Assembly (NCBI GenBank): GCA_020696345.1
Contig: JAEHCK010000011.1
Span: 213-64,212, forward strand
Length of the DNA stretch: 64,000 bases
From: Thermoplasmata archaeon
GTDB lineage: Archaea > Thermoplasmatota > Penumbrarchaeia > JAEHCK01
Direction of reading: 5' to 3'
This document shows positions 90-62,445 of this stretch, piece by piece. Both the position numbers and the translations under genes were made by a program. The notes beneath the pieces were generated by a model that was not told the origin of the DNA, searched no databases, and saw only the letters and a program-made list of their open reading frames with translations. How positions within the stretch are numbered: the stretch's first letter is position 1; each line of letters opens with the position of its first letter.

Positions 90-206
90 ATGAAATTGAA
101 GATAATTGTTGGGTTGCAAATACTATTGTTATTATTAAATATTTTTATTATGAGTTAAAATTATTTCGTATAATAATTTGATTGATGGTGACGAGGAGTC
201 CAGTGG

Positions 207-308
207 ACTAATTATTGATTAATAGTTGAGAGTCCAGATAATTAATTATTGATTAATAGTCGAGAGTCCAGGCGATTAATTATTGATTAATAGTCGAGAG
301 TCAGGAGT
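207..308. repeat. Three tandem copies of a 34-bp unit (ATTAATTATTGATTAATAGTCGAGAGTCCAGnnn)
   Basis: Unit starts at 207, 241 and 275. Copies 2 and 3 are identical over 28 nt. Followed at 331-366 by GACTC words in the opposite orientation. Confidence 0.85.
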
Positions 309-389
309 CTGAATTATTGGTCAAAATTTACAACTCACGATTCTTGACTCACGACTCTTGACTTACAATAATGATTTAATAATGATGAG

Positions 390-416
390 TGCGGGTGCCG
401 GGATTTGTAACCGAGG
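390..416 (-). pseudogene. Partial duplicate of the 3' end (acceptor 3' strand plus T-arm) of tRNA-Gly
   Basis: 390-407 (TGCGGGTGCCGGGATTTG) is identical to 556-573. Similarity continues with one indel to about 416. Confidence 0.6.
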
Positions 417-466
417 GGTTGGGATTCCAATTAATATTATAAAATAATCTTAGGAATTCCAAGCTC

Positions 467-510
467 AGAACAAAATAAGAATAAATCACAAAACCATCTT
501 ATTTTGTTCT
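467..510. repeat. Perfect 14-bp inverted repeat (AGAACAAAATAAGA / TCTTATTTTGTTCT) with a 16-nt loop
   Basis: Direct reading. Preceded by GGAATTCCAAGCTC. The same module recurs at 30495-30548 and, reverse-complemented, at 4471-4525. Confidence 0.8.
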
Positions 511-555
511 AGGGATCAAATCCCAAATCATCAATAATGTTTTAATTATAAAATA

Positions 556-628
556 TGCGGGTGCCGGGATTTGAACCCGAGTTCTAAGCTTGGCAAGCTC
601 AAGTGATACCAGGCTACACTACACCCGC
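556..628 (-). tRNA. tRNA-Gly (anticodon GCC)
   Basis: The reverse complement is a 73-nt cloverleaf. Acceptor GCGGGTG/CACCCGC, anticodon stem TGAGC/GCTTA with loop TTGCCAA, T-arm TCGGG-TTCAAAT-CCCGG, discriminator A. Confidence 0.9.
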
Positions 629-725
629 ATGTCCGTCTATTGACATAATAGAAAAAAAAACGAATTTAATAGAAACCCCTCAAACGGTTAGTGTGATGAA
701 GTAGTCATAACATACAAGGTTAATT

Positions 726-1124
726 CTACTCTTCTTCTTCCTTTTCCACGTCTTCTTCCTTTTCCATGTTTTCTTCCATTTCCACTTTTTCTTCCATTTC
801 CACTTCTTCATCCTTTTCTACTTTTTCTTCCATTTCCACTTTTTCTTTCTTTCCCAATATTATTTCAATTGAAGAGACGTTAACTGTCGGCCCTTCCTCA
901 GTCGTCAATGGCTCTGTATCTATTATTATATCCCTTATCGTAGCATCTGATACGAATCTATGCCGAACGATCTCGGCCACATCAACTGCACGGCTAATCG
1001 CTCTACCCCGAGCTTTAATGATGATCTCTGGGGAACCGCTATTGAATTGGGTAACAACTGCCAATACATAGTTCATTGTCGGTTTTTTTCCTACGAATAC
1101 TGTGTTCTCATTCTCGTCAGTCAT
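726..1124 (-). CDS. albA: Alba (Sac10b) chromatin/RNA-binding protein with an acidic repeat tail
   Basis: The N-terminal ~90 aa carry Alba signatures ([48 protein letters not shown]). The C-terminal ~40 aa are E/K/V/M repeats. Confidence 0.9.
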
Positions 1125-1229
1125 GGTAAATCTCCAAGTTTTGAATTTAGGGGCAGTTAAAAGGGGATTTCAATATAAAAATCTATCGGTAAATTAACTG
1201 GCCATGTCTGTCACTGACCGGTTTCGGTA

Positions 1230-2717: not shown

Positions 2718-2870
2718 ATCGAAACACCATATAAAAAATTGCAGATATTATCTATTGTTCTTACATAACGATTTATTATAACGTATATTGGAATTTCAAC
2801 GCAACCAGTCGATTATATCTGAATTAATAAAAAAATGCGTCAATTATCATTCACTTTACGCAGCATTTTT

Positions 2871-4223
2871 TTATTGTTTGATCAATTTTGTCAGCCTTTG
2901 ATATGCATCGGTACGTGTAAATAATATCAATTCATCGTTCAACTTGATCCTGAAATCTCCTCTTGGGATCAGCACCTTGTCATTCCTGACAACTGCTGCA
3001 ACCAATGTGTTTTTGGGGAACTTGATCTTTTTCAAAGGTCTCTGACGCAATTTTGATTTCTCTGACACTTTATATTCCACTACCTGCGCCTCACCTTGGT
3101 TCAATATAGATACAGTTAAAAGGCCGGGGCGGTGGACATACTTCAGAATGGTACTGACCGTCACCTGCCGCGGACTGATCATTAGGTCAATACCCACATC
3201 CTCCAGCATGGATTTTATACTCAATCGATCCACAAGTGCAATTGTGCGCTTTGCGTTTTGCTGTTTGGCTAGTAGACAGGACAAAATATTGGTTTCCTCT
3301 TTATTTGTGGTTGCCAAGAACGCATCGACATTGGATATGCCCTCATCGAGCAACAGCTCTCTATCGGTACCACTCCCACGAACCACCAATACCTTTGGCA
3401 ATTTCTCGGATGCAAAAAGGCATTTTTCTTCGGATTCGTCTATTAAAATAACGTTCAAGCCCTGCTCTTGCAGTGTCTTTGCCAGGTGCATGCCTATCCG
3501 CGACGCACCGATGATCATGACCTTTCTAACAATAGTTTTCAGTTCCACATGTTCATAATGCCCGAACAACTCTTCTATGAGTTTAATAGATTCCAGGTCA
3601 CTCATTACCATGACCGCTCGATCATACGCTGCGAATATATCCGACCCGCGTGGAATTATTACATCGGCATCGCGAAAGATCGCCGCCACGTTACACTTTT
3701 GCGGCAGTCCACATTTTTTTAACTGCCTTCCTATGACTGGTGCACCCGGTTCGATGCGCGTGTCATACGCCTTGACCTTTCCATTTGCAAATATCGACAG
3801 GTCGATCAATGACGGGATCGATAAAATACGGGACATTTTTATCGCAGCCACCAGATCGGGGCAGATCGCGGTATCTATGCCCAGATTACGGAATTTTTCG
3901 ATCTCTATTGGTTCATCGATATATTCGATATCGTTTATCCGGGCTATGGTCTTGCATCCCTTCAATTTAGCGATCGCACACCCGAGCATGTTGATCTCGT
4001 CAGAACCGGTTACACCGATAAAGATGTCGGCGGAATTAATGTAGGCCTCTTCCAATTTTGCAGGTGATGCCGGGTTACCGTTAATGACCAGAACGTCCAA
4101 GCTCTCTGTACGCGAGCATGCGTTTTTGTCACTGTCGATTATTGCGACATTATGCCCGGCCTCCGATAAAGACCGTGCGATGGTGAATCCTACATCACCA
4201 GCACCGGCGATCACGATGTACAT
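2871..4223 (-). CDS. trkA: TrkA K+ uptake regulatory protein (two RCK units)
   Basis: Two Rossmann GxGxxG segments (VIAGAGDVGFTIA and MIIGASRIGMHLA), each followed by an RCK-C-like segment. 450 aa, in tandem with trkH. Confidence 0.9.
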   Translation of the reverse strand: MYIVIAGAGDVGFTIARSLSEAGHNVAIIDSDKNACSRTESLDVLVINGNPASPAKLEEAYINSADIFIGVTGSDEINMLGCAIAKLKGCKTIARINDIEYIDEPIEIEKFRNLGIDTAICPDLVAAIKMSRILSIPSLIDLSIFANGKVKAYDTRIEPGAPVIGRQLKKCGLPQKCNVAAIFRDADVIIPRGSDIFAAYDRAVMVMSDLESIKLIEELFGHYEHVELKTIVRKVMIIGASRIGMHLAKTLQEQGLNVILIDESEEKCLFASEKLPKVLVVRGSGTDRELLLDEGISNVDAFLATTNKEETNILSCLLAKQQNAKRTIALVDRLSIKSMLEDVGIDLMISPRQVTVSTILKYVHRPGLLTVSILNQGEAQVVEYKVSEKSKLRQRPLKKIKFPKNTLVAAVVRNDKVLIPRGDFRIKLNDELILFTRTDAYQRLTKLIKQ

Positions 4224-4378
4224 AGGATAGGCAAATGTGAGTGTGAGAAATTTAAATCTTTCGGTTACAACATTATTGCTGAGTTATGCAGGCATATATG
4301 GGTTTTTGTTGGGCCAGCAATAATAGGATAGAAGGGATATATTATTGCTTGAAAGTTTTATGAGTCTAGGGTCTTAAG

Positions 4379-4800
4379 AGTCTAGAGTCAAGAGTCTGGA
4401 GTATTGTGCCAGAGGCAGCATAAGAGATGAGGGTAGGTCCCCTCGGTGTCGGCTTGCAGGAGCACCACATAAAAATAAGTTTTTATTTTTAATGACTTCT
4501 TTTTTTTGTTTGAGCTTAGAATTCCGTTTATTAATTATTGATTTAAACTGGAATTCTAACCCTAGGCTTCAAATCACTCGGGATCGGGCTCCACTGCGTT
4601 AGGCTCTGTAGAAAAACCGCTTAGCAGGCTCTGCATATATTTCATTAGTTTAGGTTCGGGAGATATTAACCCGAACCTATTTCAGCTAAAATAAATCAGA
4701 ACCCGATCCTAATCCAGTAATAATAAATTAGATCCCACTCCCGAATTTGGATAAATCTAACCTTATAAGATGAATATTTATTGACTCTTGACTCTAGACT
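4379..4800. repeat. 18-bp perfect inverted repeat pair (AGTCTAGAGTCAAGAGTC at 4379-4396; its complement at 4783-4800) inside longer GAGTC-word arms (4362-4402 and 4783-4818)
   Basis: Direct reading of both strands. The arms bracket 386 bp of the trkA-nop5 divergent spacer. Confidence 0.8.
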
Positions 4801-4889
4801 CCCTGGACTCTTGACTCCAATTCAACATTCATTAAACGAAATTTATTTACACATCATCAACTATTAAGAATGCATAAATAGGTGTTTAT

Positions 4890-6035: not shown

Positions 6036-6318
6036 CGGGGAATTATTGATTGAATATCGCTGGGGACATTTGAAATTGGAAATTTTAAATTGTAAAATGC
6101 AAAATAACGGTTTTGTTCCGCGGTTTAGTTTGTCGGTGGCGAGATTTCCCCTACCAAAAATTTTATATTTGCTCAAACCTAATGATATCTATTCTCATTT
6201 GCAATTCGAGGCTAATAATATTCTCTGAAACAATGATGAACTTCATTATCAAGAGACTGGGGTAAATCAGTAATTCATTTTAAATTATACCTTATTGTTG
6301 GAAAACGGGTCGGTAATC

Positions 6319-9300
6319 ATGTTTAGGGTGCATAAAAGATTCATTATCATTGGGGTATTATTGATTCTTATATCCAGTACAATTGGTAGTCACCTGATCT
6401 TGTTAACTGGTGATTCGATTAAAGCAGGTGGTGGACGAGATAATAGAAATGCACGAGTGGTTGTGGGGCCCAAAGAAATGCTTGATAATACTGATTTTTC
6501 AGCAGTAAGAAGCTGGGTTTTGATAGATGCAACGAAGGTAAAACCCGCACCCGCCCCTGCCGTTGTTCACACTGATGTCAGGTATAATAATTTGATCTCA
6601 CCGCAATATATCGTATTCGAAAATGACCAACAATTGAACTCGGATGAAACACCTATTTCACCACCATTAAAAGCACGGCTTACACAAACGTTTAATAAAA
6701 CATTCTGGACATCCAATAATCCAAACTCTGTGATATGCAGTTTCGATTACACTCCAACATATTACAATGGTCTAATCGATGGTAGTCCTGCAATCTACGC
6801 CGATATTATATTAGAAATTATGAACCTGTCGACGGGTGTTTATGGCCGTTGGCCAATTGAAAAGGATGCCACTCCCAATTTTGGCAACGGTTCTTACAAG
6901 ACAGATGATTCAAGAATAACATATCCAAGCACACAATTCTTTGTTACCCGGGATATAGGTTCCGGCCCCACCGGCGGCAGTTTTCCGGCAGGTGTGTTCA
7001 ACATTAGCCCACCCGGTCTTTACGAACTTAGTATTATATTTCAAATATGGAGCACAACTCAGGCTTTATTTAACGTGAATACTTATTATACATTTTTATT
7101 TGATAATGTATCGCTGCAGGTTATGGATGTAGAAGAACCGGCAGTGGTGGCTAATAATTCTTCATTTGGCCCTTTCAACAATAATACTTATGATGATCAG
7201 ATCAATGGTAAGATCGATATTGATTTCTTTGCCGGATCTGGTAACAATACACCGTTGAACGAAGGCAAATACAGGCTTAACAATTCCGGCAAACCAGGCC
7301 AGTGGCATCTAATATTCAAAAGCATCACAGAAATGCAGTATACTTATAATTGGTCGATTGCCGCTGTGTGGGCGAACATGAGCGAGGGGAAAAACTATAT
7401 CGATATCTATTGTAGCGATCAGGCCGGTAATTATAATGACTCAGTGCAAATTACCGTGATAAAGGACACGATCCCTCCGGTAACATATCTTCACTCCATT
7501 AACGAATATCAAACCACAAAAGAGTTTCACATTTATTATTATGCCAGAGATCCAGTACCTTCCGGTGGATTTAATAGCACGGTTATATTGATGTTCAAGC
7601 ATAATGGTTCTGGAAAATATGTGAATTATACAACATCGGATAACCCATCCGGGTTGTTCGATCACAACCCGATATTATTCGATATAACAAAGGCTGGTGT
7701 GGGGTATGGTGAGGGTAAGTATGAATTTTATAGCATAGGAATTGACAACACCAGTAACCAAGAGGCACCACCCGCACAAAATAAAATGCCCGACACCGAC
7801 ACTATTGTGGATATACATGGACCAAAACTTATTTTCATTGAACCAAAAGGAAAATATATCGTAGGTACGGAGACACTCACTATCGAGTCTGAAAATGACA
7901 CGAAACTTGTAGAATTCTACTATTGGTTAGATCTGGACAAGGATGGGCAAGCCGACGATGTTGATGATATAAGTAGTGTTTGGGTGTTGATCGATACAAT
8001 CTACAAACCTAAACCCGGCCAGTCAGATAATTGGTCAACCGAATGGGATACCAAATCCGGTAAGGATTTTATATTGGAAGAAGGCATGGTGGTTTTAAAG
8101 GCAATGGCCGTTGACATTGCAAATAATGTTAATGAAGCGTATAAGAACAATATTGAAGTTGATAATGTTGCACCAAAGGTAAAGATCACCAACCCAGAAA
8201 CACTTAGTCCCGAAAATGAAGCGCTAATTTGGATCAACTATACCACAGACCCCGATGTAATGTATGCAACATTCTATTATAGAATACATGATGATAAAGA
8301 AGATAATGCGGAATGGATAAAGATAACCGATAAGGAAAATCACACGTATGGCGATACCATTGGTACTTATCAATGGGTGTTATCAAAAGAATTTCGACAG
8401 GCAAAACCAAGAATAGATATTAAAGTGGAAGTGTCCGATGATGCTGGAAACACTGGGATGTGTGTTGTGGAATATTTACAGCCACCTCCTGTAGGACCGA
8501 AGATCAAATCAGATTTCCCAACACAAATCATGTGGGAAGAGGACTTTGGTAAAAAAACATTGAAACTAACAAAATATGAATCACATTACGACTCGAGTAT
8601 CACAGGGGACAACCTGAAATGGTATATCACATGGAATAGTGAAAAACTCTTCCACATCACCGGTAACAATAATACTGGTGAGAATGCCGATACATTCGTG
8701 TTCACCAGTATTGAAAATAGGTACGGTCAAGAGGTTTTAACCTACCATTTACATGACATGCAAGGGATAGAAGCTACCATCGAGCAGACGATCATCGTGA
8801 TCTCCAAACCCGATCGGCCGGAATTCAATCCACCTACCGAGACTATACATGTAAGATATGGTGAACCGGATACATTTGACCTATCGTATTATATTTTTGA
8901 TGTTGACAATAATAAGATCGACCTGATCCTAACCACAAATGATCCCAAGAATATTACTACAAACGGATTGAATCTAACTTTCAATTATGGTGGATCAATG
9001 AAAGGACAAAAAAAGTTAATTCGAGTCACAGTGACTGATTTCGAATATTCGATCACCAGGACCATCGAAATATTCATCTCGGACAATCATCGACCCAAAT
9101 TAGTTCTAGATCTTCCAAACGATATAGTGCTTCAGAGTGGTGTGGTTGTAAAAGACATTCTAGATCTGGATGAGTATTTCCATGATTTGGAAGATGATGA
9201 CAAATTAACTTTTACATCTGAAGAATCAATAGAATATGACGGACAACAAAAAGTAATTATTTCCATTGGTAAAGAGAATAACGTGACACTCGAAGCACTG

Positions 9301-14655: not shown

Positions 14656-14718
14656 TTTGGTACTTGGAGCTTAATTTTGCATTTTAAAATTTACAATTTC
14701 AAATTTCCAATATCCTCA

Positions 14719-17736: not shown

Positions 17737-17960
17737 ACTATCAGCTCCTGCTCCTTTTCATTCCCCTCTTGATTAAAATTAAACATTCTTTCTTCCTATA
17801 GGAAGGGTGAATAAGGATAGTGATATTTAATTTATGGGATAATTAGTAATACTTCGTGGATTGATGGTTTAGTATTCAGAAATTAATGAATGGTGGAATA
17901 TTCAGGGGTAAGGGGTCACAATTCAGGGGTCAGAAATAAGCAGTTTTAAGTACATTCTTC

Positions 17961-18100
17961 AGTCTTCCAGTCTACCCGTCTTCTGGTCTGCTGGTCCGTT
18001 AGTCTACCGGTCGACCAGGTGACTACCTGACTAGCCGACTGGTTGACCAGCTGACTGATCGACTACCTGATTCATTATATTTTTCAACTAACAAAGTAGT
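17961..18100. repeat. Mosaic intergenic repeat (GACCAG/CTGGTC words plus a conserved 30-mer), reverse orientation copy
   Basis: The reverse complement aligns by eye over about 125 nt with 47256-47375 (shared blocks ACTACTTTGTTAG, CAGTCAGCTGGTC, GCTAGTCA, GACCGGTA). Confidence 0.75.
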
Positions 18101-18257
18101 GTTAGTAAATAATGAATTATACTTTAATTCGACATTGATCCATTTTTCCGGTGATCTAGCCCTAAATTTGTTATGTGTTAGAAAGAGTATAATACATGAT
18201 TTATCATTTCATTAAACGGTTTCGTTAAACGGAATAGATAGGTGATGGCTTATTAAG

Positions 18258-19540: not shown

Positions 19541-19810
19541 CTATTCTGTTTGTACAAGTATAATCTCTTTTTATAAACATAGGGTTTTGGTATAAATAAT
19601 TTTTTTATTGGATATATTATTTGTTAAAAGTTGGTCAACATAATAAATTGCTAAGTTTTCGATTTAGGGTGTGTGTGTCAATGTAGGAGTTTGGGAGTTA
19701 TGGAGTTTAGGGAGTATTAAGTTTTGAGTTTTAAGGATAGAGTTTATAGTTGAGTTATTGCTTTTAACTTCCATGACCCCATAGACTATTAACTCTTCAT
19801 AGTGATCTTC

Positions 19811-24736: not shown

Positions 24737-25518
24737 TTACTTACCCCGTAGATTGAATACACTTTTTTATATGTCCAGATATGTATTAAACATATAAAAG
24801 CAATTCGAATGATTTTGCAATATGTTACGTTTGAATATTATTTCGTAATTTGTTAATTCAAAATCCAAAAAACAAAAATCCAAGAAAACACCAAAACCAA
24901 AATCACAAAGTATTTTGAGTTAGGGATTTTGGAATTTACCATGAGGCAAGATTTGGTAAGCTATTATTGATTAGTATTTCCAAATCTTTACTTTATTACC
25001 CACCTACCCTTAATTAGATATCGATTTGGGTTCGGGGTATTGGATTTACTTTATGTTCACAATTAACAATCCATAATTTACAATCCATGACCGTGGTGCT
25101 GCCGTGCTGGTTGACATAAATCCAAGTATTATCCGTTTATTATTAATATTTATTACCAGTTCTCTTGACAAGTCCCTAATATTTATTAGATCGGTTTAAT
25201 ATAATCTAACACTTAAATCTTTGAGTTTGTTATTTTTACCCTTGGTCTTTCTCCAAAAATGTCAATTAAATAGGTGATATATGACTATATACAAACCTTT
25301 AGCAAAGAAATTTAATTTTCGGAAGTTATTTATTTCATTGGCTTTTCAATAATCTAACGAAGATTTCGTTGCTTTGCTATTGGTTTGGACTTTTTTATTC
25401 ACATATTGTCTAGAATTACCACTACAAAATTTCCTAGTTAATTGTTTATTGCACAGAAGTAACATACAACCAGAAAGATTGATTAATTAATTTGCTTTTA
25501 TTTTTTTTCAACCTAATT

Positions 25519-30397: not shown

Positions 30398-30742
30398 ACA
30401 AACTCTAATTTTCCAAAAACCAAATAAGATTGTTTTTTGTGATTTGTAATTTGTTTAGGGGTTAGAATTCTGTTTAGATCATTGATTGATCAAAGGAATT
30501 CTAAGCTCGATAAAAAATAAGATAAAATTAATAATTATTCTTATTTTTGCGAAGTATTTAGAACTTCGGATTTAGAATTTTCTTTCATTGATAATAAATA
30601 TATAATGAAGGGGTTTAATATTAAATTAGAGAGATTATTGAAAGTACAAAATCATATCTCTACAATTTATCTTTTAAAGACGATTTCGACTAGTGGCATT
30701 GAAATTCCAATAGGCGTTAATAAAAAATGTTTTTGTTATCTT

Positions 30743-33223: not shown

Positions 33224-33432
33224 TAGATCGAATTAGGTAGAAGGAAAAATTGAAGTCTTTCGGTATACGGTTTGGCTGCTCGTATCGTCCAACGGTTTCG
33301 GCTAACGGCTCTTTGCCGTTTAACGTTAGACGATTTACGATACGAGCTTCGAAACCGATGGACGAAGCCTGTAATATAACTAAATAAATAGAAATTAGAA
33401 ATAATAATACATAATTCTTGCGGAAATGAAAT

Positions 33433-34749: not shown

Positions 34750-34810
34750 AATAAGAAATGCTTTGAAGAAAAAATGTAGCATCCGCATTTCTTATTAGAG
34801 ATGCGGGATG
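34750..34810 (+). terminator. Two mutually exclusive hairpins directly after the permease stop codon
   Basis: 12-bp perfect AATAAGAAATGC/GCATTTCTTATT (34750-34761 / 34785-34796). 9-bp CATCCGCAT/ATGCGGGATG with one bulge (34780-34788 / 34801-10). Function not established. Confidence 0.3.
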
Positions 34811-35152
34811 AGGACATTTATGTAGAATTATTAAAATCATTCATTTGTGGGATTAGGGCTGTAGAATTTATGCAACTCACATCCCACACTCCACATCCCA
34901 AATCCCTTGTATATTATATGAAAAACTATTAACAATTAAGCAATAAATTAATAGATTAAGATTTCATAAAGTAATGTAAATCCCAACATAAAAGGTGATC
35001 TAATCAAATTACAAGCAGTCAATAAAAAATCAGATAAAAAAGAACAAAAAGCCATTATCAAATTAATAAATGTTTCCAAAATCTATGATTCCGGCGCGGT
35101 CAATGTCAAAGCACTGATCAATATAGATCTTACAATAGGGAAGGGCGAATTC

Positions 35153-37642: not shown

Positions 37643-38093
37643 CCCAAGATCCCCCAGACCTGTTTCCTGTAATGGAAATGTTTGGTAATAGACATGGATT
37701 GATAATAAGATGTTGTTTCATGTAAAGTTGTGAAAGGGTTATTGTAATAAGTAATAATAAAGATTTTCTTAACCGGGTAAGAGTTCTAGGGCGGCTTCCC
37801 ATAAAGCAATAAATATTTATAGCAATAGAACAATAGAGGTGCGGAAAACTACAGAACAGATGACCTTCTATACACCCTAAACTTTTTAAAAAGCACTATC
37901 AACCCCCCCTATTGGTGTATCGAAGTTGGTGAAGAGAGGATTGGAAAATAAGGATGTTCGATGATTTATTGGTTCTACTTCAAAAAAAAGATCTAAAAAC
38001 GCCCACACTTTTTTTTATATAAATCATCACATCCTTTTTTCCTGCATTTTTGCGTTTTGATTGGATAGAATAATAATTTTAGATCAATGAGAT

Positions 38094-38326
38094 GGTCGAC
38101 TGTTAGACCGAGTGACAGGGGTCTGGGGCCGGAAACAGTTGCTAGATGTTAGTTGCTAGTTGCCAGTTTAATAATATCACACTAGAAACTAGAAGCTAGC
38201 AACTGATAACTAACGGGGTCGGGGTGAGAACAAGGTACGAGTTTAACGGGAAGAATCAATAAATAAGCACACTGGCAACCGACAACTGATTACTGACAAC
38301 TAGTATGGACGGTAGACCATCTAACA
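38094..38326. repeat. MITE-like mosaic element (GTTGCTAG/CTAGCAAC words), long copy
   Basis: Shares GGTCGAC..GGAAACAGTTGCTAGATGYTAGTTGC..CAGTTTAATA..ATCACACTAGAAACTAGAA and CTGACAACTAGTATGGMCGGTRGAC with 61371-61484. Carries about 110 extra internal nt. Outer 10-bp pair CAGTTGCTAG/CTAGCAACTG. Confidence 0.7.
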
Positions 38327-38350
38327 ATTAACTCCTACTTTTGACTGGGT

Positions 38351-42662: not shown

Positions 42663-42715
42663 TTAGTTTGTGAGTGTGGGAGTGTAAGTGTGTGGGAGTT
42701 ATTATCAGGGATTTA

Positions 42716-42780
42716 GGGTCGGAAACAGTTGCTAGATGTTAGTTGCTAGTACTACTTTGTTAGTTGAAAAATTTAATGAA
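42716..42780. repeat. Partial GTTGCTAG module followed by the conserved 30-mer ACTACTTTGTTAGTTGAAAAATTTAATGAA
   Basis: 42716-42750 matches 38126-38160. The 30-mer recurs at 47256-47285 and, reverse-complemented, at 18071-18100. Confidence 0.8.
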
Positions 42781-47219: not shown

Positions 47220-47222
47220 AGG

Positions 47223-47375
47223 ACAGTTGCTAGGTTCTAGTTGCTAGTTGCTAGTACTACTTTGTTAGCTGAAGAATTTAATGAATAATAGACGGTCGAC
47301 CAGTCAGCTGGTCGATCTGTCAGCTAGTCACCCAGTTGACCGGTATACTGTTAGACCAGTAAACGAGCAGACCGG
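47223..47375. repeat. Mosaic intergenic repeat: GTTGCTAG words, conserved 30-mer, GACCAG/CTGGTC words
   Basis: 47223-47285 parallels 42724-42780. 47256-47375 parallels the reverse complement of 17961-18100. Confidence 0.8.
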
Positions 47376-47489
47376 GAAATTATGGGTTATGGATATGAAT
47401 TGAAGAATTAAGGTTGAAAAATTTACTAATTTACTAATGTAAACTAGTTGGTACTTTTAAATTTTCAATTTACAATTTTCATTTTTAAA

Positions 47490-47512
47490 TATCCCAAGCA
47501 ACAATCAAGCAT
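47490..47512 (+). repeat. Conserved 23-mer TATCCCAAGCAACAATCAAGCAT at the 3' edge of an AATTT/CAATTT word block
   Basis: Near-identical copies at 38611-38633 (TATCCCAAGCAACGATCAAGCAC) and 62394-62415 (TATCCAAGCAACAATCAAGCAC), all on the + strand. Degenerate copy near 53187. Confidence 0.8.
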
Positions 47513-47585
47513 CTTTCAATTTTCTCTCTTTATATCTCGTCATCCCCTCATAATTCTTATAAACGATTAATACATAGTCCTCTCA

Positions 47586-48880: not shown

Positions 48881-49073
48881 CATTGGGTTTGGATAGAGGG
48901 TTGAAATATCATCGTCAAAACCCTCTTTCCTCTAACGATTCATATCACCAATTCTACACAGTGTCCTCTTCCCTCTTTCCTGTTTGAAATAATAGCTAAT
49001 TATAATAATTATTGGTTGGATCAACTTGGATAGTTATTCTATGCGAAGCGTTCCACAACATTTAAATAATCGT

Positions 49074-49103
49074 GTAAAAAGTGTTCCAATCTTTATTTTA
49101 ATA
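49074..49103 (+). promoter_or_regulatory. Shared box AAAAAGTGTTCCAAT plus TATA-like TTTATTTTA
   Basis: 15-nt identity with 53286-53300. Located about 45-70 nt upstream of ATG 49145. Confidence 0.35.
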
Positions 49104-49144
49104 CTAACGATCATTTTTTTATTAATTAATTTGAGGTGACTGAC

Positions 49145-53041: not shown

Positions 53042-53282
53042 AAGCGATTTTTTATCGTTGAGTATAGCTAATTGCTGCTAAAATGTGTGTGAGTTATGGG
53101 GGTTATGGGAGTTACGGGAGTTTAAGAATTATTGGTATTTGGAGCATTGGAGCTTAATTTTCAAATTTACAATTTCAAATTTCCAATGACCCAAGCACTA
53201 TATTATCAAACCACGATCCATAATTCTATCAATATTAATAGATCTTTGATCACCGCTTTGTTCCAATATGCTTATATAATTG

Positions 53283-53314
53283 TCAAAAAAGTGTTCCAAT
53301 ATTTACTTTTATAG
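53283..53314 (+). promoter_or_regulatory. Shared box AAAAAGTGTTCCAAT plus TATA-like TTTACTTTTATA
   Basis: Same 15-mer as at 49076-49090. Located about 65-90 nt upstream of ATG 53378. A second GTTCCAAT lies at about 53261. Confidence 0.35.
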
Positions 53315-53377
53315 GGGAGAGCATATTTTTTAATAACCTGAATTGGAAACCTGAGTTTCCGATCAAGGAGGGTTAAT

Positions 53378-54520: not shown

Positions 54521-54773
54521 TTATTTATTTATCGCAAATGCTTATAGGTGAAATATAATGATAATAAAAATGCCTAAATTAAGGATGAAGGATGTGTACG
54601 CTCACAGATAGGGATGCAGGACTCGCATACTCGGTTCCCTCGCTTGAGGGTTTCGGGTCTTGTCAATAAGCTTTCAACCCGCCTCCCGCATTCCAAATCC
54701 CGCATCCCTAACGACATTATCATAATTCAAATAATGAAAAGAAATTTATAAAACATTTCATTGGTGTTCATAA

Positions 54774-55745: not shown

Positions 55746-55746
55746 T

Positions 55747-56124
55747 TTGATGAATTGATGCTTAACAGAAGCCAGGTTGGGTTGATGTTGAACAGAAACC
55801 AGGCTTAATTAATACTGAACAGAAGCCAAGCTGAGTTGATGTTGAATAGAAACCAGGTTGAGTTGACGCTGAACAGAAGCCTGGTTGAGTTGATGTTGAA
55901 CAGAAACCGGCTTCTGTCAATCAACAATGAATCAAGGTTTCTGTCAATCAACAATGAATCAAGGTTTCTGTCAATCAACAATTAATCCCGGCTTCTGTCA
56001 ATCAACAATTAATCCCGGCTTCTATCAATCAACAATGAATCTCGGCTTCTATCAATCAACAATGAATCATGGCTACTGTCAATCAATAACTCATCACGGC
56101 TACTGCCAATCAACAAATCTACAT
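55747..56124. repeat. Two abutting tandem arrays of exactly 27-bp units: 6 A-type units (55747-55908), then 8 B-type units (55909-56124)
   Basis: No indels across 14 units. A units end ACAGAAGCC or ACAGAAACC in strict alternation. B units start with the exact reverse complements GGCTTCTGT or GGTTTCTGT. Confidence 0.9.
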
Positions 56125-56245
56125 ATTATCAATTAATTCAATCTCCATTGTGCTTAAGATCGTAGATGAGGCATAATTATTAATAATGTAAAAAAATTCC
56201 ATCTCAACGATTTACGATAGATAACCATACAATTAGGTGAGATAA

Positions 56246-56842
56246 ATGCCGCGTAAAAATAAAAATAAAAGTAAAAGCACAAGTAAAAAATCCAAGAAAT
56301 CGGATGAAAAACCTAAATTCAAATTCGTATGCCAGAAGTGTGGTAAGTGTTGCGAAACTGAGACCATATTCATCTCGATCTCCGACCTGGAGCGTTGGGT
56401 GAATGATCAGACCATCTATCGTGTAATGCACAGGTTAGAACTACAAGAGATCGAGGGAAACTATAAACTGGTATTGATACATGATGATGATGGAAAATGT
56501 AATTTATACAATCGTGATAATAAAATGTGTATGATCTATGACACGCGGCCGGTTATGTGTCGTTCTTACCCGTTGGGATTTAACGGGCAAGAATATTTTG
56601 TAAAGAACAATAAATGTAAAGGACTTAACAAAGAGGATATGACCAAGCAGCAGCTGGATACCATACGCAACCACGCTTTTGAGGAGCATATCGCCCATCG
56701 TCAAATGGATCGTGTACTTCCATTACTTTACAGCCTGATCTTTAACAAATTGATCAAGGACTCACAAGCGTTTATGAACAAGCTTGCAGATCCGGATGAA
56801 GAAACCAAAGACACCGTAACTAGCGATGAAAAAACTAAGTAA
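56246..56842 (+). CDS. YkgJ-family (CxxCxxCC) cysteine-cluster protein with a basic N-terminal tail
   Basis: FVCQKCGKCCE plus distal cysteines (GKCNLY, CMIY, CRSYP). AGGTGA SD. Confidence 0.72.
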   Translation: MPRKNKNKSKSTSKKSKKSDEKPKFKFVCQKCGKCCETETIFISISDLERWVNDQTIYRVMHRLELQEIEGNYKLVLIHDDDGKCNLYNRDNKMCMIYDTRPVMCRSYPLGFNGQEYFVKNNKCKGLNKEDMTKQQLDTIRNHAFEEHIAHRQMDRVLPLLYSLIFNKLIKDSQAFMNKLADPDEETKDTVTSDEKTK

Positions 56843-56926
56843 ATTACTTGTCCATACCAAATTTTTTTACAAAAAGTATTTATGTAATAGTGAGTTAGGA
56901 TTTTAACTGACCTTGGGAGAGATACA

Positions 56927-57220: not shown

Positions 57221-57313
57221 TTTCATAGTTTTTTTTATGTTGAGATGTAATGAATCGAAATCCTTAATATCAATAAATCATATTTCCCCGCAACGAACTC
57301 GGGAGGTTTAGCA

Positions 57314-57487
57314 ATGCCAGCAGTTATTAACGCGGAAAAATGTGACGGATGCGGTACCTGCGTAGACGAATGTCCGGTAGAGTGCATTACACTTAACGAA
57401 CATGCAAAGGTTGACGCCGATGAATGCACCGAATGCGGCTCATGCGTAGAAGTATGCCCAAACGACGCGATCACCTTAGATGATTAA
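57314..57487 (+). CDS. 2x[4Fe-4S] ferredoxin, 57 aa (below the ORF-track cutoff)
   Basis: [57 protein letters not shown]. Two CxxCxxCxxxCP motifs. GGGAGG SD 7 nt upstream. Confidence 0.85.
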
Positions 57488-57664
57488 AATCAAGTTTGAT
57501 CTTAATAGAAAACCTCGAATGCCGAGGATTTGTTAGTTTTATTAATTACAAACGCTATTGGGTAATTATTATTAGAACCTTTATTTGCGATTAAAGAATT
57601 CTTACCCAGGCAAAAGTGATCAGAACTTTTAACTTTTCAATTTTAACTTTTAAAATTTTACTTT

Positions 57665-59668
57665 TCAATTCTTTTTTCGTTTTGTATGATAAAAATAAAC
57701 AACCATGGCGCCAGCCAGGATCAGTATTAGCACAACTGAGAGCATGACCGGTGACGCACCCACCTCATCTTTTCTCCGCGGTTTATTCTGTGTGGCAAGC
57801 TCCATGAAGTGTTCAAGCGAGGTCTGTACACCGTTTATCGCACGTACCTTAAGGGTATGATCACCGTTCTCGAGGCCAGTGGTATCAAGTTCATACGTCC
57901 AATTTAGATAGATACCATTCACTTCTTTTGTTTTGACCTTCTTCCAGCTGCCATTATCCACTGCAATTTCTATGGCCTCGATCTCAATGCCAGTTTTCGA
58001 GAACGCTACACCACCAATAGTAGTGGTGCCAGTAGTAATGTTTTCCACTCCCATTTCGAGCTCTGTGATGAAGCATTGAAGATTTACATCTATTATATCC
58101 ACATCAGTAATGCTGGCGCTGACCATAACTGCTTTGTAAGCATCCACCGCACCCCAGCCAAAATCCTTGTTCCAGAACGGGTCAAGTTCGGGTATTGTTG
58201 CCTTGCCGCGGCGCTCGGCTGTAAGGTGAAGGATCTCCTTAATTACTTCACTGGTAAGTTTTGGATTAGCCTCGAGCATCATTGCACATATTCCAGCTAC
58301 TACCGGTGTTGCATACGATGTACCGCTTCCGCGGCTGCCGTAGCCGTTCCCCGAACCATCACCGATCGGGTCGAACTGTACCTGCATGATATGGGTCCCC
58401 GGTGCGGTAATATCCGGCTTCAACTCGTTATACGGGTTGCCGTCGTTGTTATCGTGTCTTGGCCCGCGGCTCGAGTATTCGGCTATTATATCATCGGACC
58501 GGTCGATGGTGTCCAGGTCATCTGACGCCGCCACAGAGATACCGTTGGAGGCCGCAGAAAATCCGCGAAAACCATCATTGTTCGGCCCTGAATTACCTGC
58601 AGCATGGCACACGATCACACCGGTATCCGCGAGCCGGTCCAGCGCAGCCGAGTATGCATCAGAACCGTCCGACGGGCTGTCAGTATCAATGCCCCAGGAC
58701 AGTGAGAGTATATCAATACCTTTATTCTCGGGATCCGCTCCAGCCCATGAGTCATCTTTGTGTTTAATGATCCACTCGATGCCTTCCAGAGAAGCATCCA
58801 GGAACTTGACCGGCATCGGTCCCTCACCTGGTGCGTAACCGAACACCGTGCCTATTCGTACATCAACCACCTTAGCCTCCGGCGCCGCACCCATGTATTT
58901 CCCCTCGGGTGCGCCCGTACCAATGGCGATACCCGTGCATGTGGTCCCGTGGCCGTTGGTATCATCAGCGTCAAAGGTGCCATCTTGAAATATACCTAAG
59001 GGATCAGGTTTGCTGATATCAGCCCCGCCAACCCATTTACCTGTCAGGCTCGGGTGGGCATTATCCACACCCGTGTCCATTACCGCAATATTGACGCCTA
59101 GACCCTGATACCCAAGCTCCCAGGCGGTGAACGGCGAGTATTCATTTGACTCGCGTGCCTTCACCGCGGGCGTGGCGATATCCGAGTACAGTACCGGCCT
59201 GCCGGGGTTCTCCACACGCAGGACGCCGGGCAGTCCAGCGATGGTCCCTATTATTGGCACGGGTACAGCGAGCAATGAAACCATATCCAGGTACCAGAAG
59301 ATGTTGCCGATCTCCACACCAAGGTCGCGTAATGTGGTAATGTCATCTTGGGTTAGTCTATCTTTGAACATCACTATTGTATCCAACCGTTGGTAACCCT
59401 TATGGATCCAGGTGTCAAGATCATCCGAGATCTTGTTGTTATTCCGATCACGTGTTGATATTAATGGTGTAGTGGTTTCATCTTGGTTGTACCTGTCCAT
59501 GCAGCCATTGCTTGTGGGTGCATGGTCGGTTGTATTCTCCGTTAGATCGATGGTAACTTCACGGCTGCGGGCGGGGATGGTAAAAAATACCGAATTGATC
59601 GGCAGTAAAATTAATAATACCAGACACGCTGCGGCAATCTGTTGGGTGATCTTGACCTCAGTCCTCAT
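57665..59668 (-). CDS. Membrane-anchored subtilisin-like (S8) serine protease
   Basis: Signal anchor. I9-like propeptide. Catalytic Asp (AVMDTGVDNAHPSL), His (NGHGTTCTGIA), Ser (GSGTSYATPVVAG). Ig-like domain. C-terminal TM (VMLSVVLILILAGAMVVYFY). Confidence 0.9.
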   Translation of the reverse strand: MRTEVKITQQIAAACLVLLILLPINSVFFTIPARSREVTIDLTENTTDHAPTSNGCMDRYNQDETTTPLISTRDRNNNKISDDLDTWIHKGYQRLDTIVMFKDRLTQDDITTLRDLGVEIGNIFWYLDMVSLLAVPVPIIGTIAGLPGVLRVENPGRPVLYSDIATPAVKARESNEYSPFTAWELGYQGLGVNIAVMDTGVDNAHPSLTGKWVGGADISKPDPLGIFQDGTFDADDTNGHGTTCTGIAIGTGAPEGKYMGAAPEAKVVDVRIGTVFGYAPGEGPMPVKFLDASLEGIEWIIKHKDDSWAGADPENKGIDILSLSWGIDTDSPSDGSDAYSAALDRLADTGVIVCHAAGNSGPNNDGFRGFSAASNGISVAASDDLDTIDRSDDIIAEYSSRGPRHDNNDGNPYNELKPDITAPGTHIMQVQFDPIGDGSGNGYGSRGSGTSYATPVVAGICAMMLEANPKLTSEVIKEILHLTAERRGKATIPELDPFWNKDFGWGAVDAYKAVMVSASITDVDIIDVNLQCFITELEMGVENITTGTTTIGGVAFSKTGIEIEAIEIAVDNGSWKKVKTKEVNGIYLNWTYELDTTGLENGDHTLKVRAINGVQTSLEHFMELATQNKPRRKDEVGASPVMLSVVLILILAGAMVVYFYHTKRKKN

Positions 59669-60611: not shown

Positions 60612-60612
60612 A

Positions 60613-61257
60613 TCACACCTTGCCTACCAAGACTGAACAATATTGAAATAAAAAACGTTTTTCTTCGATTATTTGAATACCTGACCGGGTTAGAAGTTTT
60701 TCCAGATCATGTATCTTGTGGTATCTAAGCCCAGTTGTCAAATAAAAGAACGTGAAAACCGGCATTCTGAATAAGGATATTAATCCGGATAAAACAGCAT
60801 TAGCAGGTTTTAATTCATCAGCAATAAGTAAGTATCCACCTGGCTTTAGGTAAGATCTCGCCTTTTTCAATACAGTCTCAACAGAATCTTCGTCAGGAAA
60901 CACATTTAAAAAATATACTAATGTCACATAATCGAATTTTTCTTTTAGATCAAAAGAAAAAAGGTCCTCTTGATAAAAAGTCACATTTTTGATATTATTA
61001 TGTTTGGCATTTTTTTTAGCATTTCCAATCATTTTTTTTGATACATCCAATCCAATAACTTTTGAGACCTTTTTTGCACATGATATTGCAAAGTCACCAT
61101 TGCCACAACCAATATCTAATACTGATCGGTTTTTATCAATTTTTTCCAGAAGATAATTTTTTGTCTTTACGGTTTGATAAATAGAGATCATGTCTGTAAA
61201 TTGATCATAAATGGCTGAGATCGGATCATGGTTGTATTTCAGAGATACACCCACCAA
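60613..61257 (-). CDS. Class I SAM-dependent methyltransferase (UbiE/MenG-like)
   Basis: Motif I VLDIGCGNGDF, motif post-I GLDVS. 1-nt gap to the UbiA gene. TTG start as given in the ORF track. Confidence 0.78.
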   Translation of the reverse strand: MVGVSLKYNHDPISAIYDQFTDMISIYQTVKTKNYLLEKIDKNRSVLDIGCGNGDFAISCAKKVSKVIGLDVSKKMIGNAKKNAKHNNIKNVTFYQEDLFSFDLKEKFDYVTLVYFLNVFPDEDSVETVLKKARSYLKPGGYLLIADELKPANAVLSGLISLFRMPVFTFFYLTTGLRYHKIHDLEKLLTRSGIQIIEEKRFLFQYCSVLVGKV

Positions 61258-61370
61258 GTGAAATAGTTATAATTATATCAATTTTTTAATGAAAAATAAT
61301 TAGTCAATATAAATGAGATAATGATATGTAAGATTAATGGTTGATACGATGTATAGCTGGATGTAGAGTT

Positions 61371-61484
61371 GGTCGACTTGTCGGAAACAGTTGCTAGATG
61401 CTAGTTGCCAGTTGCCAGTTTAATATAATCACACTAGAAACTAGAAACTAGAAACTGACAACTAGTATGGCCGGTGGACTATCT
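61371..61484. repeat. MITE-like mosaic element (GTTGCTAG/CTAGCAAC words), short copy
   Basis: Collinear with both ends of 38094-38326 (see that entry). Confidence 0.7.
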
Positions 61485-61553
61485 CTCAACAACAATTATC
61501 TATAACCAAATAAGTTATTTATACCTGGCAGTACAATAGGGATGTGTGGTGTC

Positions 61554-61688
61554 ATGGTAAGATATTGTGGTTTTGATTGCGAATATGCTGAACCATGTGA
61601 CGATGTGCCCAGTTGCATGACTTTTAATCCTATTCATTGTAGATTGAAGAATAAAATGGTAGCTAAAGGTATGATCTGTGATAGCTGA
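61554..61688 (+). CDS. Hypothetical Cys-rich mini-protein (44 aa; 48 aa if started at ATG 61542)
   Basis: MVRYCGFDCEYAEPCDDVPSCMTFNPIHCRLKNKMVAKGMICDS. Six Cys. Open frame only. Confidence 0.3.
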   Translation: MVRYCGFDCEYAEPCDDVPSCMTFNPIHCRLKNKMVAKGMICDS

Positions 61689-61719
61689 AGATTAATAAGC
61701 ATTTCAATTATTTGATAAT

Positions 61720-61956
61720 TTAATGGGATGTTGATGGATCGTGGCCGTGATGTGTTATTGATGGGCAGATGCCTTGATTCATTGTCGATTGAACGAAAGG
61801 TAGTTGTGATAGTAAATCAACGGATCTTCCTAGCATTAATTCATTTCGGTATCTACTCAGCACCAACCCAGCACGGCATCTATTCAGCATCAACCCATCC
61901 AAGTATCTGTTCAGCATAAATTCATCACGGTATCTGTTCAATATCAATTCATTCAT
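61720..61956. repeat. Second, inverted copy of the 27-bp A/B tandem-array element
   Basis: Read on the minus strand: 5 A-type units (61822-61956, phased exactly every 27 nt), one degenerate unit, then 2-3 B-type units. The B end aligns with 56044-56124 at roughly 75 percent identity by eye. Confidence 0.85.
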
Positions 61957-62039
61957 GCCACTGCTCACCATTAAATGAACACTGCCTCTAAAACAAACCA
62001 TTATATATGCGGTTCAAAATTCTGTTTTTTGGAATTATT

Positions 62040-62285
62040 ATGGCAACACAGGATGATACCGTCAAAATTGCGATCAAAAAACGTCTTGCACTGAAACTTC
62101 GCCGCCGTCTCAAAGAGACCGACTTCAAAACGTTATCCGAATATGTGAATTTCATACTTGCAGAGGTTGTTTCAAGCCTGGAAGAGCAGGATCAAGCTGA
62201 CGAGGCAGAGGTAGAGCCTGAGTACAGCAGAGAAGAAGAGGAAAAGGTGAAAGCGCGTTTGAGGGACCTGGGGTACTTGGATTGA
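62040..62285 (+). CDS. Ribbon-helix-helix (CopG-like) DNA-binding protein with an acidic C-terminal region
   Basis: VKIAIKKRLALKLRRRLKETDFKTLSEYVNFILAEVV, then an acidic linker and RLRDLGYLD. Start probably ATG 62040 (the tracked ORF starts at 62007). Confidence 0.62.
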   Translation: MATQDDTVKIAIKKRLALKLRRRLKETDFKTLSEYVNFILAEVVSSLEEQDQADEAEVEPEYSREEEEKVKARLRDLGYLD

Positions 62286-62445
62286 GATTTATGGGTTGTG
62301 GATAAGAATTGAAGAATGAAGAATATAAATTTTAAAGTGAAAGAGATGTTATTGAAACTTTTAACTTTAAAATCTTCAATCTTCACTTTTAAATATCCAA
62401 GCAACAATCAAGCACCTTTTATCCACGAAGTAGTACAATACCAAT

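Follow-up and report, generated by a model that had tools for sequence, protein, structure and literature searches.

The 64,000-nt window analyzed here (the whole stretch, positions 213 to 64,212 of contig JAEHCK010000011.1, assembly GCA_020696345.1) carries genes for tRNA-Arg(TCT), tRNA-Gly(GCC), Alba, TrkH/TrkA, Nop5, a four-subunit pyruvate:ferredoxin oxidoreductase (POR) and adenylate kinase, together with several surface proteins of 1000-1600 aa, an AbiEi/AbiEii pair, MacB/FtsX transporters and a subtilase. The subject of this study is the short tandem and inverted repeats in the spacers between these genes. The nearest relatives of Nop5 are 61-66% identical, followed by the Methanomassiliicoccales at ~47%, and the gene order TrkH-TrkA-Nop5-surface protein-POR is preserved in relatives. 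The conserved gene order and the Nop5 affinities indicate that the window is chromosomal DNA of an uncultured Thermoplasmatota-related archaeon which is related to the Methanomassiliicoccales. A rough gene model of these 64 kb, to which all results on this genome refer, gave 82% coding DNA and 30 spacers of at least 40 nt with a sum of 11.3 kb. Small genes apparently lie inside several of the spacers (57312-57485, 43113-43410, 62040-62290 and 19313-19520); one of these open reading frames (ORFs) reads as a ferredoxin and one may be of the zinc-ribbon type. Given these small genes, the real non-coding share is probably somewhat below 18%.

A preliminary description of the window held that nearly every spacer is assembled from one shared vocabulary of short words, comparable to the mosaics of repetitive extragenic palindromic (REP) sequences known as bacterial interspersed mosaic elements (BIME). 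Our results bear out the spacer repeats, their folding and their mosaic recurrence, but neither the common short-word vocabulary nor the likeness to REP/BIME.

Metagenome assemblies commonly fail at repeats and a single sequencing run stands behind all data, which would favor the repeats being an artefact of a metagenome-assembled contig, a worry already voiced in that description. However, three contigs that Logan assembled from run SRR26538805 align to the window over 3540, 987 and 4370 nt without a single mismatch, and they cover the arrays at 4781-4817 and 6064-6096 as well as the entire composite spacer 47220-47585. A second assembler thus reproduces the repeats exactly, and relatives from other samples and pipelines carry the same kind of arrays. 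The artefact explanation is therefore largely refuted, and we regard it as extremely improbable. As to strain variation, exact-protein look-ups returned only contigs of the same run, which were identical to the window.

Periodic arrays in the spacers

Using Tandem Repeats Finder (TRF), arrays with a period of 6-9 nt and at least 2.5 copies were found to occupy 676 nt in 15 of the 30 spacers. This corresponds to 60 nt/kb, as compared to 6 nt/kb in genes and ~1 nt/kb in 100 dinucleotide shuffles (14 ± 18 nt, maximum 95, in 0.65 spacers). Periods of 7 nt (n = 16) and 8 nt (n = 6) were dominant among the spacer arrays with at least 2.5 copies. Recurrence of 4-mers in the spacers amounted to 24.8, 18.1 and 13.4 per 1000 at lags of 7, 14 and 21 nt over a baseline of ~8, with additional peaks at lags 8 and 16 (13) and at lag 27 (25.9), while genes displayed codon 3-periodicity only. 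Likewise, 13 of the 16 perfect heptamer doublets were located in spacers. Units of 14/16, 27 and 34 nt occur besides those of 7 or 8 nt, and our reading of the TRF, sequence and fold results places an array or a strong hairpin in 18 of the 20 spacers that measure 200 nt or more.

The arrays are degenerate, with 70-93% matches. In seven of them a doubled period was fitted better by TRF than the basic one; for units of 14 and 7 nt, respectively, the fit was 93 vs 77% at 53159-53187, 83 vs 74% at 57627-57670 and 85 vs 75% at 4362-4402. A coding repeat was observed in the Alba gene (726-1124, minus strand), where seven 18-nt tandem repeats (731-856) encode a 40-aa acidic C-terminal tail of the EKVEMEE type. 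The Alba proteins of relatives have a length of 90-91 aa, and the process that makes the spacer repeats seems to extend this protein. The degenerate arrays, the better doubled periods and the 18-nt repeats of the Alba tail argue for stepwise tandem duplication in unconstrained DNA.

The words listed in the preliminary description were present at the coordinates given there, yet because of this degeneracy mostly as imperfect copies and with few exact matches. GAGTC occurs five times in 191-308, four times in 4362-4402 and five times inverted in 4783-4818, a 30-mer was found at 42751, 47256 and, reverse-complemented, at 18071, and GGAATTCYAAGCTC at three sites, while exact GGATGC is missing from two of the three intervals assigned to it. 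A comparison with a published short-tandem-repeat density of 1.02 bp/kb was dropped, since repeats were defined less strictly in the perfect-repeat count, in which 5-6-mer doublets arising by chance predominate. Avoidance of, or a decoy for, restriction-modification was also rejected, as the array words are not depleted in genes (observed/expected 1.12 for GAGTC and 1.02 for GGATG), where only CTAG (0.65) and GTCGAC (0.38, 4 counts) are low.

A significant inverted partner was found within 350 nt for 12 of the 30 arrays and an extra direct partner for none; counting the pair 4362/4783, which is 386 nt apart, ~13 arrays have inverted partners. Convergent pairs of the same heptamer are located at 4362-4396/4783-4817, 38137-38168/38181-38212, 61388-61420/61433-61465 and 31727-31758/31768-31799. 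Among 150-nt windows, 29% of those in spacers and 4% of those in coding DNA folded with z < -2. The earlier observation that words have their reverse complements nearby and could form imperfect hairpins is thus confirmed. A canonical G-quadruplex motif, (G3+ N1-7)x3 G3+, was absent from both strands of the window, and this idea was dropped. An Rfam scan of the window yielded only its two tRNAs above thresholds; a mir-1277 match at 31725-31799 was sub-threshold and merely reflects the hairpin at this site. The arrays also lack features of CRISPR, since they run head-to-tail without spacers between the units and no cas domains were detected in Pfam scans of the window proteins.

Copied cassettes, dispersed families and relatives

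Sharing of 8-mers between spacers was the same as in shuffles (1923 vs 1930 ± 31), which speaks against one shared vocabulary; an excess was observed only from 10-mers up (12-mers, 161 vs 29; 14-mers, 88 vs 2). The top shuffle-enriched 6-/7-mers each occur in at most 5 of the 30 spacers, and 27 words had z > 4, compared to 15.5 (maximum 27) in shuffled replicates. There are ~ten unrelated array words in the 64 kb, and most arrays are confined to a single spacer. Arrays and dispersed families together make up 26-29% of the non-coding bases, far from an assembly of nearly every spacer out of such words.

A blastn self-comparison traced the sharing to about eight families, 50-300 nt in length, namely the two-hairpin element F1, the F2 box, the AATTT arrays, the M1 hairpin element, M2-M3, M4-M6, the promoter/operator segment F7 and the 27-nt arrays. 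Spacers resemble each other because homologous segments of this length were copied, either whole or truncated. The cassette copies are collinear and 73-92% identical, and each family is present in 2-5 spacers. Sub-runs of the composite cassette M1-M6 were found at 42713 (M1-M2), 18100 (M2-M3, reverse complement), 62289 (M4-M5-M6) and 38609 (M6), while M1 is accompanied by its own inverted arm at 38125 and 61377. In the alignments the modules follow a fixed order and not different orders as had been proposed. On this sequence evidence, the collinear sub-runs are read as a copied and truncated cassette, not as free shuffling of words.

To place these repeats in their lineage, loci of relatives (designated L039 to L052) were compared with the window. 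The divergent TrkA/Nop5 spacer of the window (666 nt) has orthologues of 612 nt (L040), 180 nt (L042) and 78 nt (L039). The core promoter boxes flanking it are conserved throughout, and the 78-nt spacer of L039 is without filler. In the window and in L040 the spacer contains nested palindromes whose periodic arms consist of unrelated words (GAGTC vs TGGAATA). In L043, a gene for a DDE_Tnp_1 (IS4-like) transposase (8478-9899) lies directly upstream of Nop5, replacing TrkA. The site upstream of Nop5 is a rearrangement hotspot in the clade.

L052, which originates from the same metagenome sample as L039 and encodes a CxxCxxCC protein 54% identical to that of the window, contains arrays at 112 nt/kb. 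Its lags of 7, 14 and 21 nt are as strong as in the window (lag-7 peak, 30 per 1000), its words are mostly different, and a 26-nt array is related to the 27-nt unit of the window. In the smaller samples of L039, L040 and L042 the arrays amounted to 15-51 nt/kb. No arrays were found in L043 (848 nt of spacer) or in two Methanomassiliicoccales-type outgroup loci, one of them GC-matched. Window spacers shared 26, 38 and 20 14-mers with L039, L052 and L040, respectively, as compared to 2-3 in shuffles, and the outgroup was not above shuffles. Most of what the genomes share consists of promoters, of F1 and the F2 box, of the AATTT array found at the same convergent junction and of an A/C-rich element of 50 nt. 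Taken together, the feature is real and lineage-specific.

The A/C-rich CAAAATCCA segment at 24858-24906 is ~90% identical over ~50 nt to L052 18640-18688, although the neighboring genes are non-orthologous; it occurs once per stretch examined, in genomes whose proteins are ~55-63% identical, and gave no match in viral contigs. In a sister species (L051, GCA_044344285.1), positions 1-785 correspond to window positions 56108-56853, with 89% identity of the CxxCxxCC protein and 92% identity of the DNA. This contig, 785 nt long, stops at the edge of the 27-nt array, which suggests that the array is also present in the sister species and breaks its assembly. Likewise, the Logan contig L046 ends ~60 nt before the array at 17956.

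F1, the module described earlier as GGAATTCYAAGCTC plus an AATAAGA hairpin, is built of ACAAAATAAG..CTTATTTTGT, TGAGCT and GGAATTCC..GGAAT. Ten copies from three genomes show compensatory changes in 10 of 21 pairs. With a covariance model, three strong and two weak copies were detected in the window, three in L039 and five or six in L042, and none in L040, L043, L052, the outgroups or viral contigs. A viral origin was rejected, as 13 viral matches of the F1 box were unconfirmed by the model. The copies cluster beside tRNA-Gly(GCC) in all three genomes (window 385-545 and 30410-30570, minus strand, and 4450-4610, plus strand; L039 5850-6345; L042 1-1025). Each full copy has T-arm-like boxes on its flanks, one inverted and one direct, and the direct box runs on into the acceptor end of tRNA-Gly; copy 1 sits between the inverted box and a partial tRNA-Gly 3' end (391-416). 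F1 may be a dispersed repeat derived from a tRNA, or else what is left of integration sites.

Several of these results would fit non-autonomous elements of the MITE type (miniature inverted-repeat transposable elements) or of the type of REPINs, hairpins formed by REP pairs, in which an enzyme encoded elsewhere reads the folded arms of hairpin array pairs and cassettes and copies them. At 4354-4817 the inverted arrays enclose 380 nt of inserted sequence that the orthologous spacer of L039 lacks, copies within the window are 77-92% identical, two families are common to a distant relative at non-orthologous sites, contigs L046 and L051 end near repeats (the 17956 array and the 27-nt array edge), and F1 retains both of its hairpins through compensatory changes. 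However, the search for a mobilizing enzyme called for in the preliminary description, which was made within the window, revealed no REP-associated tyrosine transposase (RAYT), IS200/IS605 TnpA or any other transposase or integrase among the 36 window proteins scanned with Pfam. Neither target-site duplications nor sharp ends were definable in the cassette alignments, and the window contains no insertion sequence. The families number 2-5 copies in 64 kb, most arrays occupy a single spacer, and truncation or recombination of a single cassette would leave collinear sub-runs, which is what the partial copies are. We therefore consider such mobility a minor possibility.

Elements along the window and candidate signals

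The repeat elements and related features are summarized in Table 1. As noted previously, they occupy the 3' ends of genes, junctions of convergent genes and the space between divergent promoters, and therefore one role, such as that of a terminator, cannot cover all arrays.

Table 1. Repeat arrays, dispersed elements and related segments of the window.
Position	Strand	Element	Details	Basis
196..366		GAGTC-type arrays between tRNA-Arg and tRNA-Gly	34-nt unit x3.1 (196-302) with GAGTCCAG and AATTATTGATTAA per unit, facing an inverted 14-nt unit x2.2 (333-363)	TRF; inverted partner p = 0.016; fold z -3 to -4
415..509	-	F1 copy 1, two-hairpin element		Covariance model R1, 94.8 bits; alignment, compensatory pairs
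2763..2812		F2 box TATTGGAATTTCAAYGC..	Inverted second copy 30686-30736; kept at the same TrkH-TrkA position in L040 (common 14-mers)	blastn self-comparison
4354..4817		Filler separating the divergent core promoters of TrkA and Nop5	GAGTCNN heptad array 4354-4402; inverted copy 4781-4817 (35 nt, 83% complementary); ~380 nt between, with F1 copy 2 (4468-4563, +) and a 32-nt repeat (4668-4736)	TRF; inverted-repeat and covariance searches
6052..6105	-	AATTT-type heptad array after Nop5	Sole copy inverted relative to upstream gene	TRF, blastn
14657..14718	+	AATTT-type array TTGGAGCTTAATTTT..AATTTACAATTTCAAATTTCCAAT	Two T4 tracts in upstream-gene sense; fills convergent junction of surface-protein gene and POR-beta	TRF, blastn
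17956..18112	-	M2-M3 sub-run in divergent POR/adk spacer	30-mer 18071-18100, then 8-nt GACCAG/GTCAGCT array; 73% identical to 47245-47373 over 129 nt, E 2e-16	blastn
19686..19756	+	GT leader and GGAGTTT/GGGAGTT 8-nt array	Without inverted partner	TRF
24858..24935	+	A/C-rich CAAAATCCA array	Short inverted arm ATTTTGAGTTAGGGATTTTGG	TRF
30430..30551		T-rich heptad array and F1 copy 3	Array 30430-30455 directly after stop codon, then F1 copy 3 (30458-30551, -)	89.4 bits
31727..31799		CACGAAT structure	CACGAAT x3, spaced 10-11 nt, facing ATTCGTG x3; words complementary, 3-nt linkers not	32-nt arms, 84%; fold z -5.8 to -6.4; inverted partner z 8.8
33275..33345		Lone imperfect hairpin between two FtsX paralogues		Sequence; fold z -3.3
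34776..34906		GCATCCGCAT/GATGCGGGATG hairpin and C-rich array CACATCCCACACTCCACATCCCAAATCCC		Sequence; fold z -3.7
38088..38335	+	M1 hairpin element	Outer stem GATGGTC..GACCATC; inner arrays GTTGCTAG heptads 38137-38168 facing ACTAGAA/CTAGCAAC 38181-38212; duplicated second 3' arm 38263-38327; nearby M6 box 38609-38637 and weak F1-like matches 38346-38423, 38469-38547	92% identical to 61382-61464 over 83 nt
42667..42780	+	GT-rich GAGTGTGG array and M1-M2 sub-run	Array 42672-42699, sub-run 42713-42780	TRF, blastn, alignment
47220..47516	+	Full composite cassette M1-M6	M1 GTTGCTAG array; M2 30-mer with promoter-like GAAAAATTTAATG; M3 GACCAG 8-nt array; M4 ATTTATGGGTTATGGATA..GAATTGAAGAAT; M5 AATTT array, four T4+ tracts; M6 ATATCCCAAGCAACAATCAAGCA	TRF, blastn, alignments; 0 mismatches in independent assembly
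49050..49134	+	F7 promoter/operator-like segment	GTTCCA boxes; paralogous copy 53260-53347	blastn
53085..53187	+	GAGTTATGG 9-nt array and AATTT array	53091-53122, then 53132-53187; downstream of gene 49136-53041	TRF, blastn
54581..54708		AAGGATG repeats facing CCCGCAT heptad array	Heptad array 54678-54708; around inner hairpin	Fold z -2.4
55746..56143		Large 27-nt-unit palindrome	5.7 copies 55751-55905 facing 7.7 inverted copies 55908-56116	Inverted score 50 vs null 13; DNA fold -55.6 kcal/mol, z -5.1
57620..57670	+	AACTTTT heptad array at convergent junction	Five T4 tracts	TRF, sequence
61365..61495	+	Second M1 hairpin element	CAGTTGC x4.7 facing ACTAGAA x4.7	TRF, blastn, partner test
61703..61981	-	Second 27-nt-family locus	Inverted vs 55748-56141	64-76% identity over 95-261 nt
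62289..62419	+	M4-M5-M6 sub-run	77% identical to 47380-47516 over 137 nt	E 8e-20

The two arms of the 27-nt palindrome (55762-55920, minus strand, and 55927-56136, plus strand) each remain open as outward frames of 9-aa repeats of the GFCQST/GFCSTST type, which are probably a by-product of the repeat. The two 27-nt loci enclose a 5.6-kb segment; the idea that this segment is mobile or can invert was rejected, as it contains ordinary genes (CxxCxxCC protein, subtilase, UbiA).

The signal for transcription termination in archaea consists of at least two U4 tracts and is read by aCPSF1/FttA (PMC8716108). Such tracts would be expected within ~30 nt ahead of the 3' end of the transcript. Six of the seven AATTT arrays are rich in T on the sense strand of a gene whose 3' end lies upstream, and the arrays display four T4+ tracts at 47448-47490, five at 57620-57666, two each at 14656-14718 and 62352-62398, and one at 53141-53187. 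An AATTT array is kept at the orthologous convergent junction in L039 (16038-16075, match at the 14-mer level). These properties suggest that T-rich AATTT arrays may have been taken over as multi-U-tract terminators. With 2-5 T4+ tracts in 35-50 nt downstream of genes, AATTT/TTTTCAA arrays of the window resemble known archaeal terminators, although the latter are not described as phased 7-nt arrays or as a dispersed family (PMC8716108). A hairpin of a different kind, AAAAATGCGTCA..TGACGCATTTTTTT with flanking A and T runs, follows the TrkA stop codon at 2824-2870 and recurs in L040 at the same place (2138-2184) and at 4034-4080; it looks like a bacterial-style terminator in an archaeon.

F7 appears to be a common regulatory region and not a repeat array. 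A 43-nt block at 49065-49107, with GTTCCA boxes around a TATA-like box, is identical in L052 (3223-3265). F7 lies upstream of the gene for a 1301-aa protein with TSP3-type repeats and C-terminal helix-turn-helix (HTH) domains, its paralogous copy precedes gene 53378-54520, and the GTTCCA block is probably the operator of a small regulon. The proteins encoded at 49136-53041 and 54774-55745 combine a signal-like N-terminus, TSP3 calcium-binding-type repeats, a hydrophobic stretch and two C-terminal winged-helix HTH domains, an unusual layout that suggests membrane-tethered transcription factors. A further observation concerns 27662-29157, where an AbiEi antitoxin and an AbiEii nucleotidyltransferase toxin form a pair of the type IV toxin-antitoxin or abortive infection kind; the AbiEi ORF call overlaps the start of a neighboring 594-aa gene on the opposite strand.

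Signals of this sort raise the question of whether the arrays in general are functional, either as arrays of protein-binding sites (operators, insulators, chromatin or Sm-like sites) or as structured elements of untranslated regions or small RNAs. The CACGAAT words recur at helical-turn spacing and are conserved while their linkers are not, the GTTCCA boxes lie within a block identical between species, the AATTT array and the CAAAATCCA element are retained between genomes at ~55-63% protein identity, and the M2 30-mer, which is located upstream of the M3 array, resembles promoter boxes of this genome (GAAAAATTTAATG vs AGAAATTTAAAT). However, ~ten unrelated words in 64 kb would need many specific binders, and most words are not conserved in relatives. 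Arrays are found on the 5' as well as the 3' side of genes and also between divergent core promoters, a place where mRNA is unexpected, and there is neither a match to an Rfam family nor a canonical G-quadruplex motif. A general function as signals is therefore judged unlikely.

Known repeat systems and the origin of the arrays

BIMEs are inverted REP mosaics in the extragenic DNA of bacteria. REP, BIME and REPIN sequences of Enterobacteria and Pseudomonas are similar to the repeats of the window in being extragenic, hairpin-forming mosaics with inverted partners that lie between genes, including convergent pairs (PMC3116915, PMC3184786). In contrast, REPs are one or a few conserved palindromes of 20-40 nt in hundreds of copies and are tied to RAYT, while the window is without a conserved unit. 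It contains no imperfect palindrome conserved across spacers and no alternating REP pairs with set linkers. REP/BIME is thus not the closest analogy. Two closer analogues went unnamed in the preliminary description, namely bacterial heptanucleotide repeats and, in Xanthomonas, GGGAATC arrays in inverted pairs (PMC4679880, PMC4692102).

Long simple-sequence repeats with units of 5-11 nt are dominated by heptanucleotides in many bacteria, and slippage has been proposed as their cause (Mrazek 2007, as summarized in PMC4679880 and PMC4692102). According to these summaries, the top-ranked genomes belong to Burkholderia, cyanobacteria, actinobacteria and Xanthomonas (PMC4679880, PMC4692102). The arrays of the window consist likewise of head-to-tail units of 5-11 nt with heptamers dominant and are confined to non-coding DNA. 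Short tandemly repeated repetitive (STRR) sequences, heptamer repeats of the cyanobacteria Calothrix and Nostoc, belong to this class. The bacterial heptanucleotide repeats share with the window mostly 7-nt tandem units in non-coding DNA, several units per genome and a patchy distribution by lineage, whereas the host of the window is archaeal and its arrays are short (3-6 copies), degenerate and in many cases paired as inverted copies.

The GGGAATC repeats of Xanthomonas and GGGGAYT repeats of Nostoc also form intergenic heptad arrays, typically of about four units, and vary in length and sequence among related species while the type of site is kept (PMC4692102). At 70-75 sites per Xanthomonas genome two convergent GGGAATC arrays are found which are capable of forming a stem-loop or cruciform (PMC4692102). 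Unlike the window with its ~ten words and lack of a canonical G-quadruplex motif, these bacteria use one G-rich word genome-wide, for which G-quadruplex formation was shown (PMC4692102). TAACTGA repeats of marine Beggiatoaceae, cyanobacteria and Bacteroidetes are intergenic heptamers as well, with 2-6 copies per set that are sometimes mixed with arrays of other heptamers, and related species have shorter spacers without them; however, they use a single word, lie mostly just upstream of start codons and include one indirect repeat in 170 sets (PMC4679880). Among archaeal sequences, the repeats of Borgs are fast-evolving, intergenic and, where the unit is a multiple of 3 nt, also present in genes, comparable to the Alba tail, but they are near-perfect direct repeats on extrachromosomal elements and virtually absent from the host chromosome, whereas those of the window are degenerate, chromosomal, mostly of 7-8 nt and often inverted (PMC9879509). 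In a survey of 687 archaeal genomes, archaea were the domain poorest in short tandem repeats (PMC12699852). In agreement with the preliminary description, which knew of no archaeal equivalent, no report of such archaeal repeats was found.

The explanation we favor, and to which we give about an even chance, combines arrays made by slippage, matching of arms by hairpin-templated copying, duplication of cassettes and reuse of T-rich arrays as terminators. The 7- and 8-nt arrays would arise in place, through replication slippage or unequal exchange in unconstrained DNA. Hairpin-templated copying at quasi-palindromes yields inverted arms that match word for word. Such copying could keep the two arms complementary, and the DNA or its transcript would fold as a long imperfect hairpin. 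Composite cassettes of 50-300 nt, which contain arrays, may then have spread by recombination, duplication or some mobilizing enzyme. Short conserved signals also present in relatives (AATTT arrays, promoter/operator boxes and the tRNA-Gly-linked two-hairpin element) would represent a third kind of sequence. Most arrays may be neutral or selfish filler, because they sit between core promoters, terminators and genes and not within them.

Several observations weigh against this explanation. Some array-bearing segments that are ~90% identical at non-orthologous sites, between genomes whose proteins have diverged as described above, are hard to reconcile with neutral filler and point to constraint or mobility. 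The conservation of the CACGAAT words but not of their linkers is more like that of protein-binding sites than of a selected stem. The orientation bias of the AATTT arrays is weak (one-sided binomial estimate, p ~0.06), and T4 tracts were not significantly enriched 3' of genes (0.89 per 100 nt, vs 0.81 on the 5' side). For one relative, two assemblies (L040/L041) agree without any difference over the 612-nt repeat-rich spacer and thus give no direct sign of ongoing slippage. Finally, the array signal is known from 64 kb of this genome; scans of genome contigs with the M6 box and of metagenomes with the M1 box yielded chance matches only, and both M1-box matches lie in apparent protein-coding sequence.

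It is also conceivable, though we find it decidedly unlikely, that the clade keeps self-propagating or selected spacer elements of an undescribed kind, namely palindromes with arms of phased 7-8-nt or 26-27-nt arrays, in addition to the two-hairpin element flanked by T-arm boxes. If so, the latter would be an archaeal counterpart of tRNA-derived repeats similar to short interspersed nuclear elements or MITEs, and the persistence of families at ~55-63% protein identity would imply a novel enzyme that mobilizes them or reads their structure, or else a function as boundary or insulator.

Archaeal replicative polymerases differ from those of bacteria. Intergenic heptad repeats were previously described in a few bacterial groups (PMC4692102, PMC4679880), and it is informative that an archaeon shows the same preference for 7 nt and the same layout of inverted pairs. 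If slippage is the cause, the 7-nt preference would not be peculiar to the bacterial replisome; if structural selection is the cause, such selection would be common to both domains. For the lineage itself, the repeats appear to break short-read assemblies, and with orthologous spacers of 78 to 666 nt they offer a handle for strain typing. The few modules conserved between distant genomes are candidate archaeal terminators, operators and small mobile elements.

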